DNA from: a plasmid
Sequence record: NZ_CP067021.1
DNA length: 64,000 nucleotides
Reading direction: 5' to 3' (one strand)
A model generated the notes under the pieces. That model was not told where the DNA came from, ran no database searches, and saw only the letters and a list, made by a program, of their open reading frames with translations. Below, one piece after another: positions 42,541 to 54,483 of this stretch (positions are counted from its first letter, which is position 1; every line of letters begins with the position of its first letter). Both the position numbers and the translations under genes were made by a program.

Positions 42541-43577
42541 ACTACAACGTTAAACACCTTTCTAAAAGTACTCGTTAAAACGTTTTTCACTTTAAGCAAA
42601 ATGTTTTTCACTTTTAAGCCCAATAAATGCAAATGTCTTTTTTGACTCCTCTCTTGTTAGTACAGTGGAAAAATCAAAAAAATGAAGTTGAGAAATCATA
42701 AAAACACAGTGGGCCTTTTTTACAGTGAAGTGCTTGATATGCGTAGTTTCAATAGTCTTTTGCCAGTGCTGATGCCTTAAATTTTTAGGGATAAATACGA
42801 CTCTAAGCACATCATTATTGCAGTTTAATTGGTGTTTAAGGTGTAAAACTTTATATTTAAGATGCACAGCACTAAACCATAGGGTAGGTTTTTATAAGTA
42901 GCAGTTGTAATGTCTTTAAAGTTTTAAATTAGTAATGGTATATACCAAGATGCATTTTTTCTTCAAACAGTTTTTATCAATTTATTTAATATTAAAGAAG
43001 CTGACTTATAAATAAATTGCATTATCCACATTAATATTTTTATTGTTAATTAAAAAAGTATATAAACATCTTTATTAATGTACTTCTATATTGTAAAATA
43101 TAAATTACAGTATTAACAATATTTTAAGTAAAAAATAAACTAAATCTAGTTTGTTATTTTCTGTATAAAATTTATTCTAAAAAAAGAACAATAAAGATAA
43201 TAAAAAGAAAGAATAAGACTATAAAGGATTATAAAAGACGTCTAGCAAACTATAAGAGCTCATTTACTCTCTACAATTGATTGAAAAAAGTACGTTGTAT
43301 TTCTATTTCAGATAAGTACTACTAAAAAAAAGCATTGTTTTGGACAGACAATGCACCTAAAAAGAGTATTTTTTACAGATTTGTCTTGTTTAGGCCAGGT
43401 ACGACTGCCTAAAGAACGGCCTTAGATATACGTTAAAGCTTATAAATTAGGTTTAAGCGAGTGTCTAAAAGTCGGCTTTATACCTTTTAAGGGGTTTTTT
43501 ATAATTAATAAAGTGCATTTTAAAAGTTTTTAGACTAAAATCATTTTGTCTTTATACCCACTTAATCCGGAGTAAAA
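42541..43577. promoter_or_regulatory. 1-kb AT-rich non-coding spacer between divergent T4SS operons (probable divergent promoters; candidate oriT/site region)
   Basis: Composition; no credible ORF (the 91-aa ORF is probably spurious). Confidence 0.4.
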
Positions 43578-46484: not shown

Positions 46485-47606
46485 TTGAAAGGTAAACTTA
46501 TGAAAAATACTCAAAATGAAAAACCAGCGATTGAAGAACGTTATATTGTTCTAGGTATTGATGATGGACATGGCGGTACAAAGCTTTATGCTGGTCTAGA
46601 TCCAGATGGAAATGAAATCAAACTGACTATTCCTAGTATTGCTTATTCAGGAAAAGTCCTCACTGGCGAAGAGGAATCTACTGACTATTATGTGGTTAAA
46701 GTTAATGAAAACCTTTATACAGTTGGTAAGAAGATCAATAGTAGTGTTCCTCTAGATACCAGAACAGATGAATACCCGACATCTGAATATAACAAGGCAC
46801 TAATACACCAGGCAATTAAGGCCTATATTGACCATATCGGAACATATGATGGTAGAGCGTTTGCAATCGCTACTTCACTTCCTGTTAGTCGCTATTACAC
46901 ACCTGAAAAAACCAAAAACATGCCACTTATTGATATGAAAACTAATTTTCTACTCAATGGTGATGTTTGCTACAACTTAAAAGATCATAAAGCTGGTAAA
47001 CCGCTTAATATCATTAAAAGACATATTGTTAAATGTGAAGCTCAAACAGCTTATTTTAATGAGATTATTGATGTACACGGAAACGGGTCAGAAGATAGTG
47101 ATCTTTTAATAAGTTCTGAATGTGCTGTAATCGATATTGGCGGTAAAACCACTGATATTGTAGTCACATTAGATGGAGGAAACATGCTTGATGGCCATCG
47201 TTCTACATCACGTAACCTTGGTATTCTTACCATCTATGAACGAATCACTAGCTTAATTCTTGAATCTGGCTATAAAACGGTTAACGCTAACTGGCTAGAT
47301 TTCGCACTAAAATCTGGAAATTATGGTATAGGATCTCAAGCCAAAGATATTAGAGGTTTAATTCAGCAAGCTAAAAACGAATTCATGATCGAATTAAATA
47401 ACTTTATCTCTAAACAGATCGGTGGAGGAGATGATTTAGCATTAGTATTATTTTGTGGAGGCGGTGCAGCTTTTCTTGAAAAAGAGATTAAAGAAAAGTA
47501 CGACTTACCGAACGTAAGAATCGCAGAATCACCAGAGTACGCCAATGCTAAAGGTTTATATAAGTTAGCTAAATACATGTATAAAATGTACGCAGAAATC
47601 AAATGA
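46485..47606 (+). CDS. ParM/StbA-like actin-fold ATPase
   Basis: Phosphate-1 LGIDDGHGGTKL and phosphate-2 AVIDIGGKTTDIVV motifs. Confidence 0.65.
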   Translation: MKGKLMKNTQNEKPAIEERYIVLGIDDGHGGTKLYAGLDPDGNEIKLTIPSIAYSGKVLTGEEESTDYYVVKVNENLYTVGKKINSSVPLDTRTDEYPTSEYNKALIHQAIKAYIDHIGTYDGRAFAIATSLPVSRYYTPEKTKNMPLIDMKTNFLLNGDVCYNLKDHKAGKPLNIIKRHIVKCEAQTAYFNEIIDVHGNGSEDSDLLISSECAVIDIGGKTTDIVVTLDGGNMLDGHRSTSRNLGILTIYERITSLILESGYKTVNANWLDFALKSGNYGIGSQAKDIRGLIQQAKNEFMIELNNFISKQIGGGDDLALVLFCGGGAAFLEKEIKEKYDLPNVRIAESPEYANAKGLYKLAKYMYKMYAEIK

Positions 47607-48430
47607 CAGATTCAAACTACATACAACTATCCTATCAATTAATTCACTTAACAAGAGAAGATCTTGATGTGATTAGTAGTGTTAATAGAAATCTACCAGG
47701 TCTAGACTTAAACGCTTTTAGTTTAAGTCTGCTGTATTTGGGATTTATCTTTTGTACTGACAAGCAGAAGATTTTTCTAAATGCGCCAGTGCAAAATGAA
47801 ATAGACGAGATGTTTGCACAGCCTGTACGAATGAAAATAGATAAAAATGCAAATCAAAAACTATTTAATTCAATTAAAAAACATCCTCAAGGAAAGCTTC
47901 GTAGAAATTACATAACTGCTGTTTTACATGCTGGTATAGCGGTTCTAATTGAGCTTTCATACCTTTATAAGTTGTATGAAGTTAATGAGGATATGGCAAG
48001 CCTATATTCTGTCAATTCTTTCCTATTAAGGTTTGGTTTAAGTACTTGTGTTGAAACATACTCCAAGTTTAATACTGCTTACTATGTGTATGATATTGAA
48101 TATCTTGAAAAAAAGTATCTTGATCATATCACCATACAAATACCAGAAAGTAGTAAGGAGAAAAGTGAACAATCACCTAAAAAGCCCGTAACTGATTCTA
48201 TCAAGAGCAAGGAGGTTCCTGTTCAAAAAGCAGTTAAGATAAAGGAAGCTAAACATACTGAACATAAAAACATTCAGGACCACTCCCCTACCGTTGAAAC
48301 ATCTCAAAATACCGAAACATCCGAAATTAACAATGCTAAACCAAGTCAAAACGTATCTGAATCAAAACCAGTAACCAATCCAAGTAATTCGGATTGGCTT
48401 AACAAGACTTTTAATCCAGATCTATTATAA
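47603..48430 (+). CDS. hypothetical protein with S/T/K-rich disordered C-terminus (possible ParM adaptor)
   Basis: ATGA overlap with the ParM-like gene. Confidence 0.4.
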   Translation: MTDSNYIQLSYQLIHLTREDLDVISSVNRNLPGLDLNAFSLSLLYLGFIFCTDKQKIFLNAPVQNEIDEMFAQPVRMKIDKNANQKLFNSIKKHPQGKLRRNYITAVLHAGIAVLIELSYLYKLYEVNEDMASLYSVNSFLLRFGLSTCVETYSKFNTAYYVYDIEYLEKKYLDHITIQIPESSKEKSEQSPKKPVTDSIKSKEVPVQKAVKIKEAKHTEHKNIQDHSPTVETSQNTETSEINNAKPSQNVSESKPVTNPSNSDWLNKTFNPDLL

Positions 48431-48474
48431 AAAAACCGGCAATGCCGGTTTTTTTCATTCAAAGTTTTGAAACT

Positions 48475-49536
48475 TCAATCATTCAAGCTCTTAAAAAACT
48501 CTTCAATTTTTCTAGCTTTCTCTTCTGTAATATCGGCATCCAAGGCTACTCGCAACTTAAGTACACTCTTACCTTTGGTACCACATTCAGAACTCATAGA
48601 ACCAAATTTAACGCCCTTATCTGTTTTAAAATCGAATTTATTCTTACTCGATTGTTCTTCAGTAGTAGCTTCTTCAGTTTTTTCAGGCTTAGTCGCCTTA
48701 TTTGCTTTTTCTTCTTCACTCAAAATAGCTATAAATCCTTTATGACGCTTGCCCGTGGATTTAAATTCTTCAACGTATTTATCCCATTCTGGTCTTAACA
48801 AGTCGAAAATTGCTTTTTCGGTTTTAGTTTCTAAAGCTTTATTTATTGCGGTATTCACTTCTTGAGCAATATATCCAGAAATTAGCTCAGGATCTTCGTT
48901 CAAAGAGTCCAAAATGAACTCAGGTAAGTCTAGAATATATTTGAGACGGAAATACTTCGACTTATCAATCGCAAATTTTTCAGTAACAAATTCATAACTT
49001 TCAAAAGGATAACCGAACTCTTCACATAATTGCTTGATTTTTAATATGCTTTCAAAATCTGTAAGATTATGTCTAGCAGTATTATCCAATAAAGCTGTTA
49101 TAGCAGCTTTATCATCATTCATAGATGTTTTAACTAAAGCAGTAATTCTCTTTAGCTTTAAAATCTCTTTAATTGCTCTAAAACGTCTCTCACCAGCAAT
49201 TAACTCGTAACGATTACCCTTCTGTCGAACAGTAATTGGGTTAATTTGTCCATTAATTTCTATATCAGCAGCCAAAATTGGCAACTTCTCATATACACGT
49301 TTATTCATGATACGTGGTTGATAAGGTGATGGATCAATTAAATCAATGTCGATTGATTCTAAATGAGATCCGCTAACAATATTTTTTGTTTCTCGCTTAG
49401 CTAGTGGGTTAAGACTCCCCTCTTCTATGGCTGGAGTCGCTGTATTTTCTTTTACATCAGTAACTTGAGCGTCACTCCCTGTTGCATTAGCAACAGGTGT
49501 TTTTTTCATGCTTTTTACTTTGTCTTTAAAGTTCAT
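48475..49536 (-). CDS. parB: ParB-family partition protein
   Basis: ParB N-terminal box GERRFRA; downstream of parA. Confidence 0.8.
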   Translation of the reverse strand: MNFKDKVKSMKKTPVANATGSDAQVTDVKENTATPAIEEGSLNPLAKRETKNIVSGSHLESIDIDLIDPSPYQPRIMNKRVYEKLPILAADIEINGQINPITVRQKGNRYELIAGERRFRAIKEILKLKRITALVKTSMNDDKAAITALLDNTARHNLTDFESILKIKQLCEEFGYPFESYEFVTEKFAIDKSKYFRLKYILDLPEFILDSLNEDPELISGYIAQEVNTAINKALETKTEKAIFDLLRPEWDKYVEEFKSTGKRHKGFIAILSEEEKANKATKPEKTEEATTEEQSSKNKFDFKTDKGVKFGSMSSECGTKGKSVLKLRVALDADITEEKARKIEEFFKSLND

Positions 49537-49545
49537 ATCAGCACC

Positions 49546-50382
49546 TTATAATTTTTTGTATTCAGAAACCATTAGATCTACAAGTTGATTAATTGCTTGT
49601 TTTGCTGGTGTTTCTTTTCCAGCATCCAGATCAAATACGGAACACTTAACATATGATGCTTGACTAAAAACCGTAGCATTTGGAATACAGATTAATTCCT
49701 TATTTACCAGTTTTTCTTGTAATTTTGGTTGAGCATATTCATTGCGAATATCTTCAGCCAAGGTAAGATCCACTGTATTACGCTTGTTATAAAAGTTTAG
49801 TACTGGCGATAGAATTTTTAAATCTGGATTGCTTGTCTCTAAATCATCCATAGAGTTAAGTATATCTTCCAAACCCTGAATACTGTATTCACCCTGTAAT
49901 GGAATTAATAAACTGTTTGATGCTAACAAAGCATTAAAAGTTAAAGTTTCCATTCGCGGTGGACAATCTAACAAAATAAAGTCGAAATCCCCTTTTATCT
50001 TTCTTAATACACTTCTAATAATTTCATTAGGAACTGGACTAGAACGTTGAATATTGATCTCAACATCACGAATGTTTTTAGCACAAGGAATCAAAGATAC
50101 ATTTTCAAAGTTGGTTTTATCTGGACCTTGTATAACATCGTGGATGTTAATTGTTTTATAGTTTTCAAAAATATCTTTTAGAGTGCCATCTATATCGTCA
50201 ATATCTGGAACATTTGAAATATGTTTTGTTGCATTACGTTGGCTATCTAAGTCGATTACTAAAACCGTATAACCTAATTTTCCAAGCTTAGCAGCACAAT
50301 TCACTGTAGATGTTGTTTTGCCCACACCACCTTTAAAATGGATGCTTGTACAAATATAAGTTTTTCCTGAGTTCTTTTGCAT
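49546..50382 (-). CDS. parA: ParA-family partition ATPase
   Basis: Deviant Walker A KGGVGKTT. Confidence 0.85.
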   Translation of the reverse strand: MQKNSGKTYICTSIHFKGGVGKTTSTVNCAAKLGKLGYTVLVIDLDSQRNATKHISNVPDIDDIDGTLKDIFENYKTINIHDVIQGPDKTNFENVSLIPCAKNIRDVEINIQRSSPVPNEIIRSVLRKIKGDFDFILLDCPPRMETLTFNALLASNSLLIPLQGEYSIQGLEDILNSMDDLETSNPDLKILSPVLNFYNKRNTVDLTLAEDIRNEYAQPKLQEKLVNKELICIPNATVFSQASYVKCSVFDLDAGKETPAKQAINQLVDLMVSEYKKL

Positions 50383-50512
50383 TTTTCAATCACCTTTCAA
50401 GTAAAGTCAAACAATACAATATTTGAAAAATATTTAAAATACTTTTTCACTTTATTTTTAATATATTTTAACTTTTTCAATCTATATGCCTAACATGTGT
50501 CCATATCTTATG

Positions 50513-51520
50513 TGTTTTTCATTATCAGACTGATAACAGCTTTAGATTCCTAAGCGTGGTTTTTTTCATTATCAGACTGATAACAGCTTTAGATTCCTAA
50601 GCGTGGTTTTTTTCATTATCAGGCTGATAACAGCTTTAGATTCCTTAGCGTGGTTTTTTCATTATCAGACTGATAACGGCTTTCGATTCTTAATCGTTGA
50701 TTTTTTCATTATCAGACTGATAACAGCTTTAGATTCCTTAGCGTGGTTTTTTTCATTATCAGACTGATAACAGCTTTAGATTCCTTAGCGTGGTTTTTTT
50801 CATTATCAGGCTGATAACAGCTTTAGATTCCTTAGCGTGGTTTTTTTCATTATCAGGCTGATAACAGCTTTAGATTCCTTAGCGTGGTTTTTTTCATTAT
50901 CAGTCTGATAACAGCTTTCGATTCCTAATCGTTGATTTTTTCATTATCAGACTGGTATCAGCTTTAGATTCCTAAGCGTGGTTTTTTCATTATCAGGCTG
51001 ATAATGGCTTTCGATTCTTAATCGTTGATTTTTTCATTATCAGACTGATAACGGCTTTAGATTCTTAATCGTTGGTTTTTTCATTATCAGACTGATAATG
51101 GCTTTCGATTCCTAATCGTGGTTTTTTCATTATCAGACTGATAACGGCTTTAGATTCCTTAGCGTGGTTTTTTCATTATCAGACTGATAACGGCTTTCGA
51201 TTCTTAATCGTTGTTTTTCATTTTCAGACTGATAATGGCTTTCGATTCCTAAGCGTGGTTTTTTTCATTATCAGGCTGATAACAGCTTTAGATTCCTTAG
51301 CGTGGTTTTTTCATTATCAGGCTGATAACAGCTTTCGATTCTTAATCGTTGATCTTTTCATTATCAGACTGATAACGGCTTTAGATTCTTAATCGTTGGT
51401 TTTTTCATTATCAGACTGATAACGGCTTTAGATTCTTAATCGTTGGTTTTTTCATTATCAGGCTGATAATGGCTTTCGATTCCTAATCGTGGTTTTTTCA
51501 TTATCAGACTGATAACAGGG
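50513..51520. repeat. Array of about 21 direct repeats of a 46-47 bp iteron, each with the palindrome TTATCAG(A/G)CTGATAA; two alternating subtypes
   Basis: Period measured at 47, 47 and 46 bp between successive CATTATCAG starts. Confidence 0.9.
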
Positions 51521-51730
51521 GAGTTGCCAAGAAGAGGGGAGGGCTTACTACTACTTACAGTTAAACAAATGAGTAGACGTAGTGAAATGCACAACTGAAA
51601 ATGATCTATATTAGCTGAGTAGGGGAGTGCCCTATTCACTAAAAAGACTACCAACAATATTTATAGAGAAATTTATAATATAGGCGATTAATACACTTAA
51701 ATGTCTAGTAGGGGAGGGCTTCTTATTCAT
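51521..51730. repeat. Three dispersed copies of a GTAGGGGAG(G/T)GC(C/T)T motif at about 51528, 51612 and 51704
   Basis: Seen by eye; spacing about 90 bp. Confidence 0.4.
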
Positions 51731-51925
51731 TCTTTTTAGTATTTGACCAAGAATACTGGCTTAGTGTTGAGGTTGACCTGATTTAAGCTTTAAAAGGTAT
51801 TAAGTGCCACTTTAGTCAACATCTTAAAACCATACTTAAAATCCTTAAAAGGTTTAAGGGGAATTAGATTAAAACCAATATTAACTATATAATACTCAAC
51901 AATACACATATTAATAGGGTATAAA

Positions 51926-53455
51926 ATGGCAGATCCAAAAGATAAGCTTGTACATGAGAATCATATTTATATATTTACTGTTGTTATGGTTTTAGTGGCT
52001 TTTTTGGCTGTATGGTTTGCTTATAAACCTCAAATTGTAGGGTTTTTAGTATACACAAAAGGCATTTTAATTATTCCTCTATGGTGGATACATAGCCTAT
52101 TCAAAGCTATCGGGCTTAATTACGTACCTTTACTAAGTGAGTTGGTGTATTCAACAGAACACCTATGTAAACCAACAAACAATTGGCTTCCATTATTTTG
52201 TCAAAATAAGTTTAGCGAAGTCACTATTTTTCAAATTTCAAAAGCCAGTCAAGCATGGAATTTATTAATATTTTTGCTGGCAACACCTTGGATAAAGAAA
52301 GCTTATGACCGCTTCAACAGCGAGCATCCAGCACGGGGCTTTATCAAAAGCATGAACCTAGAAGAGTTCATAGAGGAACAAATTCCAAACCAAAGACACT
52401 TACAGGTTTTTGGTCCATTAGACTTGTCAAAATATGATACGAACAATGGTCATTTTAAAGCGCTTGATTCAACTTATGAGTTTGCAAATAGGCATGAGTT
52501 AATTACAGGAACAAAAGAGCGCCTTGTGAACATTACAATCAACGGAGTAACGAAAGAATATAATGATAAAAGCGAAACAGTACCTATCATAGATGAAGAG
52601 AAGTTTTTAAATGTCTTACGTGCACAACTAGGGGATCTTTGGATAACCCTTGATAGTTCAAAAGAAACAACACCCGATGAATTATCGTATTTATCCGATG
52701 TTGATACAATTTTGCTAGCTTTGTATTTACCAGTAGCATGTGCGACTGATGAATCTATGGATGATAAAGAGTTCCGTAAAATCAAAAAAGATTCAACAAC
52801 ATTAATTAATTACTATTGGGATATTTGCACAAAAAATATACCTAGCAACCCATTGTTTACAATTGAAAATCAGTATGTTGAGGGCGATCGTAAGCTTGTA
52901 GGGTTTAATTTTGACTTCCTTAGAAAAAGAATTCACAAATACATTAAACATCCCGTTGCTACTAAGATTTTTAATAACCATGCATATGTAAGAACTATTT
53001 TGTGTGAGGTTGTATTAACAGCAAGACAGCTAGGTGTAATGCCACCAACAGATATACGCTGGTTAAAACTATACAATCGAACTGCATACGCATTCATACA
53101 GAATATTGGTAGACCGTCTTTGTTTAGTGAGGGTTTAGGTCCAATCTCGCATTATCTAATTGAGGTGAAATTAGGGAAGCCATTAGAAGAGCCAGACTTT
53201 AACATTGGTCTTGTTGGTTTTGAATACGAATTATTGAGTTTTGCCATGACTGAAGCTAGACAAAAAGCTGCTGAAGATGTAAACAGTATTATTCGAGTAG
53301 TAGAGTTTACGGACAAGGAATTAAACAACGGATCTTATAACTCTAAAAACAATTATAAAGATGATTTTAAGTATAGTGATGATCATGTTTTTGATATGGT
53401 GAGTGTAGAAATACCACAGGATGAAATACAAAAAAACAAGCAAAAAGGGTTTTAG
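51926..53455 (+). CDS. membrane protein, possibly TrbA/DotM (IcmP)-like
   Basis: Two N-terminal TM helices; directly precedes the trbB-like gene. Confidence 0.35.
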   Translation: MADPKDKLVHENHIYIFTVVMVLVAFLAVWFAYKPQIVGFLVYTKGILIIPLWWIHSLFKAIGLNYVPLLSELVYSTEHLCKPTNNWLPLFCQNKFSEVTIFQISKASQAWNLLIFLLATPWIKKAYDRFNSEHPARGFIKSMNLEEFIEEQIPNQRHLQVFGPLDLSKYDTNNGHFKALDSTYEFANRHELITGTKERLVNITINGVTKEYNDKSETVPIIDEEKFLNVLRAQLGDLWITLDSSKETTPDELSYLSDVDTILLALYLPVACATDESMDDKEFRKIKKDSTTLINYYWDICTKNIPSNPLFTIENQYVEGDRKLVGFNFDFLRKRIHKYIKHPVATKIFNNHAYVRTILCEVVLTARQLGVMPPTDIRWLKLYNRTAYAFIQNIGRPSLFSEGLGPISHYLIEVKLGKPLEEPDFNIGLVGFEYELLSFAMTEARQKAAEDVNSIIRVVEFTDKELNNGSYNSKNNYKDDFKYSDDHVFDMVSVEIPQDEIQKNKQKGF

Positions 53456-53577
53456 TCTTATACTTATAAGTTATAATTGACCGGTATTAAAACACCGGTC
53501 TTTTTTATTTAACTATTTTTTTAAAACCATATTTTAACTATACTATTAAAACATGGCTTAAAAGGTAATACTCTAAA

Positions 53578-54483
53578 ATGCTTTTAAATAATTTCACTAA
53601 AATAGTAGCAAGTTGCGCTATTAGTATTATTACAATCTCTACTTACGCTGCACCATCTCAGGACCTTACTTCTAAGATGCAAAAAATGGGCAAAGTAAAA
53701 GAAGTTAAACCCTTTAGTGGAGGTTTAACTTCTTGGATTCTTGAGGCACCTAATGGGAAAAATGCGGTGTTTTTTACAACATCCGATGAAAAAGTCATCT
53801 TACATGGTACAGCTTGGGATTCTGCTACTAAAAAAAATATATCTGAGCCTCTTAAATTAACTGCAAAAAAAATGAATGCACCAGCACAACAACCAACAGC
53901 TTCCGTTGGGAATTTGGCCAGTGCATACAATCATCCAGTCTTTAAAGCTGTAAAAACGCTTTCAGGGTTTAAAGAGGGAAAAGCGAATGATAACAACACT
54001 GTTTACATCATTTACGATCCACGCTGTAAATATTGCCACGAAACATTCAACCTTTCTCGCTCATACGTTAAAAGCGGTGCAACTATTAAATGGATTCCAG
54101 CTTTAGTTCTAAACCAAAGTGAAAACGGAAAACAATTAGCTGCTGGAATTCTTCGTAAACCATCTGAAGATACTATTAATAAAACCTTTAATGGAACAGA
54201 TGAAGAAATTAACTCAATTAAAGTGATTCCTACACCACAGGAACTTGCTGAGTTGGATAAACACTTAGGCGCTCTTCAATCTATCTTCTTCTATCACGAA
54301 GATATTGTTGCAATGCCAAAAGAAGATCGTGAACAGCGAGAAGCAATTCGTAGCGCTGGACAAAAGCCACAGCCACTAACTGCTGGTGTACCAGTTGCTA
54401 TCTTTGTAAATAAAAAGACTGGAAAAGTTGAAGCTCGTAGAGGAACTTCAGAAACAGCCACTCTTGACTATATTTTCAAATAA
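53578..54483 (+). CDS. DsbC-like periplasmic thiol:disulfide isomerase (IncI TrbB-like)
   Basis: Signal peptide; thioredoxin CxxC (DPRCKYCHE). Confidence 0.65.
   Translation: MLLNNFTKIVASCAISIITISTYAAPSQDLTSKMQKMGKVKEVKPFSGGLTSWILEAPNGKNAVFFTTSDEKVILHGTAWDSATKKNISEPLKLTAKKMNAPAQQPTASVGNLASAYNHPVFKAVKTLSGFKEGKANDNNTVYIIYDPRCKYCHETFNLSRSYVKSGATIKWIPALVLNQSENGKQLAAGILRKPSEDTINKTFNGTDEEINSIKVIPTPQELAELDKHLGALQSIFFYHEDIVAMPKEDREQREAIRSAGQKPQPLTAGVPVAIFVNKKTGKVEARRGTSETATLDYIFK

Follow-up and report, generated by a model that had tools for sequence, protein, structure and literature searches.

We propose that the tandem array encoded directly upstream of parA in a family of Acinetobacter megaplasmids is the cis-acting parS centromere of the adjacent parAB operon, similar to sopC of the F plasmid. 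We consider this assignment highly probable; the evidence for it is comparative throughout. The window, meaning the whole stretch of 64,000 nucleotides that was analysed (sequence record NZ_CP067021.1), belongs to the backbone of the Acinetobacter group III-4a / pXBB1-9 / pALWED1.1 megaplasmids, and PLSDB matches to positions 48000-54000 comprise 65 records at 90-99% identity, all from Acinetobacter. No mention of the array or of its palindrome was found in the literature searched, and the array is most likely a previously undescribed centromere of a well-known and mechanistically expected type. The relevant features of the window are the following.

48431..51925, no strand: par cassette (parB, parA, array and spacer), between an stbA-associated gene and trbA (DotM)
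48475..49536, minus strand: parB, 353 aa, ParB/Spo0J family, with ParB_N (9.8e-18), a helix-turn-helix (HTH) and a C-terminal domain
49546..50382, minus strand: parA, Soj-like ATPase of the Walker type, 278 aa, lacking an N-terminal HTH domain; Pfam AAA_31 (5.6e-41)
50383..50512, minus strand: parA leader and promoter region, AT-rich (20.8% GC); promoter position predicted
50513..51520, no strand: tandem array, 21 units (45-47 bp each) followed by a last copy that consists of the palindrome only; proposed parS centromere
50522..50536, no strand: first (parA-proximal) 15-bp palindrome, TTATCAG-A-CTGATAA; proposed binding site of a ParB dimer
51501..51515, no strand: last palindrome (22nd copy), second half of the unit missing; end of the array towards trbA
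51521..51925, plus strand: non-repeat spacer from the array to trbA, within the cassette, with three to four AGGGGAG(G/T)GC boxes

Structure and conservation of the array

The first-pass annotation had described about 21 tandem repeats with an internal palindrome upstream of parAB, and this description is confirmed by both Tandem Repeats Finder and a table of the individual units. The program reports the array at 50515-51518 with a period of 47, 21.5 copies, 89% matches and a score of 1441, and no other sizeable tandem repeat occurs in the 64-kb window. When units are anchored on CATTATCAG, 21 are full (14 of 47 bp, six of 46 bp and one of 45 bp), with a mean spacing of 46.6 bp. The 22nd copy, at 51499-51518, consists of the palindrome alone and the rest of the unit is missing; the same terminal structure is found in other plasmids of the III-4a family. 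The core of each unit is a near-invariant 15-bp palindrome, TTATCAG-N-CTGATAA, the first of which is located 140 bp from the parA start codon. A search for TTATCAGNCTGATAA with up to two mismatches found 22 sites, every one within the array, and one more weak two-mismatch match at window position 554; in terms of strand-matches, 44 were observed versus 0.32 expected from shuffled sequences.

Two other roles for the array were considered and rejected. A coding role does not fit, as the unit length is not a multiple of three and the open reading frames are short repeat artefacts, and an RNA role finds no Rfam match (in the scan of 48-53 kb no score came near the gathering threshold). A consensus scan for promoters and terminators found fewer promoter-like sites than shuffled sequences contain and was uninformative for the array.

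We compared 130 units from eight plasmids of the family. Differing sites amount to 0.5% across the 14 positions of the palindrome arms versus 11.6% in the remainder of the unit, and ascertainment bias in these figures is small because only one of 135 unit intervals is aberrant, namely a 92-bp double unit whose second palindrome lacks the centre base. The centre base itself may be A, G or T and varies freely. Selection thus appears to act on the palindrome only. Several second-half positions (GCTTT, GAT, T32 and C36) are invariant in the family across 47 distinct units, for which recent common ancestry of the units could be the source. The number of copies differs from plasmid to plasmid: the eight plasmids carry 22, 22, 21, 19, 16, 16, 14 and 13, pM3-1-68 carries 14, and two species-representative genomes carry 12-13. 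Within this range of 12-22, the parA-proximal start and the terminal half-unit are constant.

Unit variants form a mosaic that is limited to the non-palindromic half. It had been suggested that two subtypes alternate along the array and that they could be bound by two different proteins. There is no such alternation, and the two-protein suggestion is not supported: unit types, classed by their variable positions, follow the order AAABAAAABABhhABhABhhh (where h is a hybrid unit), with nine switches at 20 junctions (permutation p=0.81), and no higher-order period was found at offsets 1-10. A related reading is that of a composite site, in which the palindrome binds ParB while the variable half binds a second protein, such as the 275-aa partner of a ParM/StbA-like ATPase or a host nucleoid protein, and the subtypes differ in affinity. 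This would fit the invariant second-half positions among the 47 distinct units, the perfect CGATT-N3-AATCG dyad of the B-type units, and the presence of a ParM-like gene pair adjoining the cassette. We nevertheless give it very little credence: the subtypes have no alternating or periodic order, the family contains four or more different spacer variants, the variable half has diverged in a relative with 81% identical ParB in which the palindrome is unchanged, pA297-3-type plasmids retain the ParM pair without the array, and the spacers of sopC are dispensable (PMC3177203).

The reading of the array as a centromere rests in part on its likeness to sopC. F sopC is composed of 12 repeats of 43 bp, with a range of 3-17 repeats in the Sop family, bases outside the inverted repeat make no contribution to SopB specificity, and one repeat is sufficient (PMC3177203). 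Like sopC, the array consists of head-to-tail units of about 45 bp, each with one short inverted repeat as its sole conserved part; the repeat number varies among relatives in both cases (3-17 in the Sop family, 12-22 here), and the predicted binding protein is, like SopB, an HTH protein of the ParB superfamily. There are also clear differences. The array lies upstream of parA, whereas sopC follows the B gene; the units measure 46-47 bp, or about 4.4 helical turns, and those of sopC 43 bp; and the site is a 15-bp 7-N-7 palindrome with a free centre, whereas that of sopC is 16 bp and requires a Pu-Py centre.

The ParAB proteins and the sites of their relatives

The parA and parB genes are encoded on the same strand, 9 bp apart. 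ParA has a second Pfam match (CbiA, 8.8e-17), and its closest PDB structures are ParA/Soj proteins, with alignments that start at ParA residue 10. Aligned to P1/P7 ParA structures, it matches from residue 107 or later of those structures; its score with the SopA model is 39 bits (cutoff 725), and it lacks the DNA-binding domain found at the N terminus of type Ia ParAs. ParA therefore differs from SopA, a large type Ia ParA of about 390-400 aa with an N-terminal HTH, in being a 278-aa Soj-like protein. In the leader, an alignment of 58-81% relatives shows conservation of TTGTATTGT (50411-50419) and of the Shine-Dalgarno region, both between the array and the start codon of parA, and sigma-70 matches are weak.

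ParB matches TIGR00180 with 76.3 bits (cutoff 58.45) over residues 58-230 and carries the CTP motif GERRFRA (GxxRxxA) in its ParB_N domain. In the AF2 model residues 61-270 have a block pLDDT of about 86-96, the N-terminal tail is lysine-rich and disordered, and the C-terminal domain is separate. A Foldseek search with this model retrieved Noc, KorB (TMt 0.69-0.72) and CTP-bound ParB clamps; KorB is the top match by TM-score, and Noc and chromosomal ParB match about equally well. Sequence and model together indicate a canonical CTP-clamp protein of the Spo0J/Noc/KorB type. With 353 aa and a ParB_N plus HTH fold, it is not a ribbon-helix-helix centromere-binding protein of type Ib. A Walker-type ParA and a ParB in one operon, the ParB_N, HTH and C-terminal domains of the latter, and palindromes near the operon are all features of type I ParABS. 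The system may best be described as a chromosomal/IncP-like ParAB pair combined with an upstream sopC-like centromere.

Several known systems share parts of this arrangement. In common with chromosomal ParABS (Soj/Spo0J), there is a small ParA, a ParB with GERRFRA, HTH and a C-terminal dimerisation domain, and a palindromic site, but chromosomal sites are single and dispersed around the origin, while here 12-22 tandem copies lie beside the operon and one is distal. The site of Vibrio cholerae ParB2 (chromosome 2) has the same 15-bp 7-N-7 geometry. RK2 of group IncP, with KorB and IncC, also combines a ParB-family CTP clamp with a small ParA, and there, as here, the operon-adjacent site probably doubles as an operator. 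KorB is a global regulator with 12 dispersed 13-bp operators, and the present system differs from it in having one cluster of sites and a single distal copy. The IncC plasmid R55 has a palindromic parS just upstream of parA that is likely autoregulatory too, and ParB binding and centromere incompatibility have been demonstrated experimentally for that system (PMC10954446). It differs in having 14 single sites scattered over the backbone instead of a tandem array.

In order to compare ParB with its site across lineages, we collected relatives of ParB with 82, 81, 75 and 52-59% identity and built a nine-sequence alignment with relatives that are 81, 73, 56, 53, 38, 33, 31 and 28% identical. The palindromes found with these relatives are listed below.

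81% ParB relative: TTATCAGCCTGATAA, palindrome identical, spacer clearly different; at a contig end
56% ParB relatives: GTGTCAG-A-CTGATAT, upstream of parA
Plasmid pBJAB0715 (ParB 38%): TTTCCAC-T-GTGGAAA, two copies, one about 80 bp upstream of parA and one just after parB
P. aeruginosa pF051 (ParB 33%): GTCCCAG-N-CTGGGAC, about 10 copies across 1.5 kb upstream of parA
P. mandelii (ParB 31%): TCCCAC-A-GTGGGA and TTCCCAC-N-ATGGGAA, about seven copies upstream of parA
Iodobacter (ParB 28%): GTAGCAA-N-TTGCTAC, two copies bracketing parAB

The 7-N-7 geometry and the position are kept across the relatives; the sequence and the multiplicity (two to about 10) are lineage-specific. The predicted recognition helix of ParB, KSKYFRLKYIL (with the HTH register taken from a HMMER alignment of ParB to Noc), is unchanged in the relatives at 81% and 73% identity, carries a single K-to-R substitution in those at 53-56%, where the palindrome core is kept, and differs in the lineages whose palindrome differs. 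This co-variation is supportive of a pairing between ParB and the palindrome, although it comes from few independent lineages and is confounded with phylogeny. The full arrays of the 56-82% relatives are unreadable because their Logan short-read contigs all end 90-210 bp upstream of parA.

The same survey yielded observations on other plasmids. In Pseudomonas megaplasmids, 7-10 palindromes of the form GTCCCAG-N-CTGGGAC or TCCCAC-A-GTGGGA lie upstream of parAB-trfA modules (clusters at L003:2326-3805 and L004:2151-3761), and those of P. mandelii are partly inside a 163-bp tandem repeat. These palindrome strings were absent from the literature searched, and the clusters are probably undescribed centromeres of those megaplasmids. 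The Iodobacter fluviatilis plasmid pl1 carries an 11-bp tandem repeat, TTTTGATATCC, in 36.7 copies upstream of parA (L005:3492-3892); it has one helical turn per unit and is separate from the two 7-N-7 palindromes that bracket parAB.

We also counted copies of the palindrome across 200,000 bp of pM3-1-68 and found 14 in the array and exactly one elsewhere. The lone copy, TTTTTTCATTATCAG-N-CTGATAATGAAAAAA, forms a perfect palindrome of 31 bp and lies some 34 kb from the array, in the gap immediately upstream of a giant LPD1-domain gene. It is located at about 75,234-75,266 of the pXBB1-9 record (L021:40235-40267) and at 43267 of the pM3-1-68 record, and was further seen at L147:144 and L148:144. 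In these four plasmids the arms are conserved and the centre base is variable; the surroundings are conserved in 64 family records. The sequence of the lone copy suggests that the T-run and CA flank of an array unit represent half of an extended symmetric site.

This distal copy bears on the possibility that the array is mainly a transcriptional silencer. ParB would then act like KorB of RK2, loading at the array to repress the divergent operons of parAB and of trbA, the latter for the type IV secretion system (T4SS), and at the distal copy to repress the LPD1 gene; partition would be a secondary function or one in which the ParM-like system shares. A silencer would suit the structural match of ParB to KorB, the best by TM-score (TMt 0.69-0.72), the position of the array between divergent operons in a cassette that interrupts an ancestral tra operon, the conserved single site in front of the LPD1 gene, and the lack of an autoregulatory domain in ParA. 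We regard this reading as distinctly improbable, since the single site outside the array in 200 kb of pM3-1-68 compares with 12 dispersed operators for KorB and does not make a global regulon of that type, a cognate and co-transcribed ParA is present, 12-22 sites far exceed what an operator needs, and Noc and chromosomal ParB match about equally well. Moreover, silencing is compatible with the centromere reading and does not exclude it.

The inserted cassette and the question of replication

In pA297-3 and pRIVM_C010761_3 the stbA (parM-like) gene, a hypothetical gene and trbA are contiguous, and no parB-parA-array block is found at that position. Therefore parB, parA, the array and the spacer constitute a cassette that was inserted, in inverse orientation, into the tra operon, and the array travels with parAB as one inserted module. 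The trbA gene, which is 411 bp from the array, encodes a DotM/IcmP-like type IVB secretion protein and takes its name from Mindlin et al. 2021 (PMC8490738). Its promoter is presumably located in the spacer at 51521..51925, which has a weak promoter match at 51813-51842. The spacer also contains AGGGGAG(G/T)GC boxes at 51535, 51621 and 51710, and GGGGAG occurs at 51518, with a spacing of about 86-89 bp (window 51518-51721); these boxes are possibly a regulator site for the trbA promoter.

Inside the tra operon, at window 46485-48430, are genes for a 373-aa actin-type ATPase resembling ParM/StbA and for a protein of 275 aa. This gene pair is kept in pA297-3-type plasmids that do not carry the parAB cassette, no parC-like repeats are evident near it, and plasmids of the family may therefore carry a second segregation-type gene pair.

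We searched 185,579 species-representative genomes for pairs of the palindrome separated by 20-50 bp. This pattern was found in five stretches in four Acinetobacter genomes, all of the III-4a type and all with an adjacent ParA, ParB or TrbA that is 98-100% identical to that of the window. Four of the five stretches end at or near a contig edge inside the array. Short-read assemblies of the family and its relatives repeatedly stop in the array or shortly before it, on the upstream side of parA, and the array is a systematic assembly breakpoint. In a loosened two-palindrome scan of metagenomes, the matches listed were mostly single chance ones, and the multi-copy matches were rejected as unrelated repeats with no ParA or ParB nearby.

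The array had also been interpreted as an iteron-type origin or copy-control (handcuffing) locus whose Rep gene is elsewhere. In such a locus an initiator would bind to the repeats of 47 bp, and melting would take place in the adjoining 130 bp of AT-rich DNA. Several observations on the family are in keeping with this: Ghaly 2020 (PMC7738440) found no Rep in most members, Lam et al. list pALWED1.1-type plasmids as rep-less, and in another Rep-less Acinetobacter lineage the origin lies between the par operon and the T4SS operon (PMC11142715). A stretch of 130 bp with 20.8% GC also adjoins the array and coincides with the promoter and leader region of parA. A rep gene accompanied by ten iterons of 83-84 bp, at a distance of about 58 kb from parA, was put forward by Mindlin et al. 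2021 (PMC8490738). Using their primers, we located the putative rep in pXBB1-9 at L021:16596-18386 (minus strand) and an iteron-like array (84 bp, 9.8 copies) at L021:19235-20047. The putative rep has no match to Pfam Rep_3 or any other Rep family at E<=1, which is again in keeping with this reading.

An origin at the array is nevertheless highly improbable. No DnaA box (up to one mismatch) is present in 50383-51925. The core of the unit is a symmetric palindrome and not an asymmetric iteron of 17-22 bp, the array has no k-mer of nine or more in common with the 84-bp iteron array of the family, and no homology was found to the minimal replicon of pAhaeAN54e, the one Rep-less Acinetobacter replicon that has been defined by experiment, or to its peptides. 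The block is an insertion that moves with parAB, relatives of ParB on small plasmids have just two palindromes bracketing parAB, and copy numbers from 12 to 22 are tolerated. As for a Rep gene, none of the ten neighbouring proteins contains a Pfam Rep domain, and the only published candidate is the distant gene described above. Cumulative GC skew in a complete 200-kb family member tracks gene orientation and singles out neither the array nor the 84-bp iterons. Because the putative Rep lacks a Pfam Rep match and Lam et al. still class the family as rep-less, the published initiator and origin of the family are best regarded as putative, and a role of the array region in replication keeps a small probability.

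A separate region of the window has features of its own. The divergent intergenic region of 1 kb at 42541-43577 drops to the lowest GC content of the window (12-15%, around 42970-43210) and also contains the sole perfect DnaA box of the window (43022-43030) and two copies of a 21-bp repeat (42577-42619). It could comprise divergent tra promoters or an unwinding or origin-type element.

Proposed mechanism and significance

The centromere reading, which the first-pass annotation had offered together with a role in autoregulation, is thus well supported by the conservation of the palindrome, by the sites of ParB relatives, by the linkage of array and parAB in one cassette, and by the range of copy numbers. 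We infer ParB binding, CTP-dependent spreading, partition activity and autoregulation from what is known of the protein family, as follows. A ParB dimer would bind one 15-bp palindrome per unit through its helix-turn-helix, at a site that is possibly extended by the CA and T-run flank. Binding of CTP would close the ParB clamp, which could then slide off the site and allow reloading. The 12-22 closely spaced sites would act as loaders, a role we assign to them because ParB has the GERRFRA motif and a clamp-type fold, and the sliding ParB-CTP clamps would gather into a single large partition complex. ParA, as a Soj-like ATPase, would be stimulated on the nucleoid by the disordered, lysine-rich tail at the N terminus of ParB, and would move and space these plasmids of about 200-400 kb, presumably of low copy number, across the nucleoid. 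Spreading of ParB from the array would in addition repress the par promoter, leading to autoregulation of parAB; ParB is the likely repressor because ParA lacks a domain for autoregulatory binding to DNA and the distance from the parA start to the array is 140 bp. The array is therefore probably the par operator too, with respect to a promoter whose position is itself predicted.

A more speculative extension, which we consider unlikely, is that insertion of the cassette into the ancestral tra operon created a regulatory hub, where ParB-CTP clamps loaded at the array spread in the two directions, silence both parAB and the trbA operon, and might bridge to the LPD1-proximal palindrome. If this were true, a single CTP switch would coordinate plasmid partition, conjugative transfer and the establishment genes.

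Multidrug resistance reaches many species of Acinetobacter through the III-4a/pXBB1-9 megaplasmids (Ghaly et al. 2020, PMC7738440; Mindlin et al. 2021, PMC8490738), carriage of carbapenemases occurs in the family, and its maintenance functions are poorly defined. The array explains why short-read assemblies break just upstream of parA, and its copy number of 12-22 may serve as a typing marker. The 7-N-7 sites, paired with diverging ParB recognition helices, provide material for studies of ParB-parS specificity. A defined centromere would be a target for incompatibility-based curing and a cis element for stable Acinetobacter vectors, and would thus be of practical value for a clinically important plasmid family.
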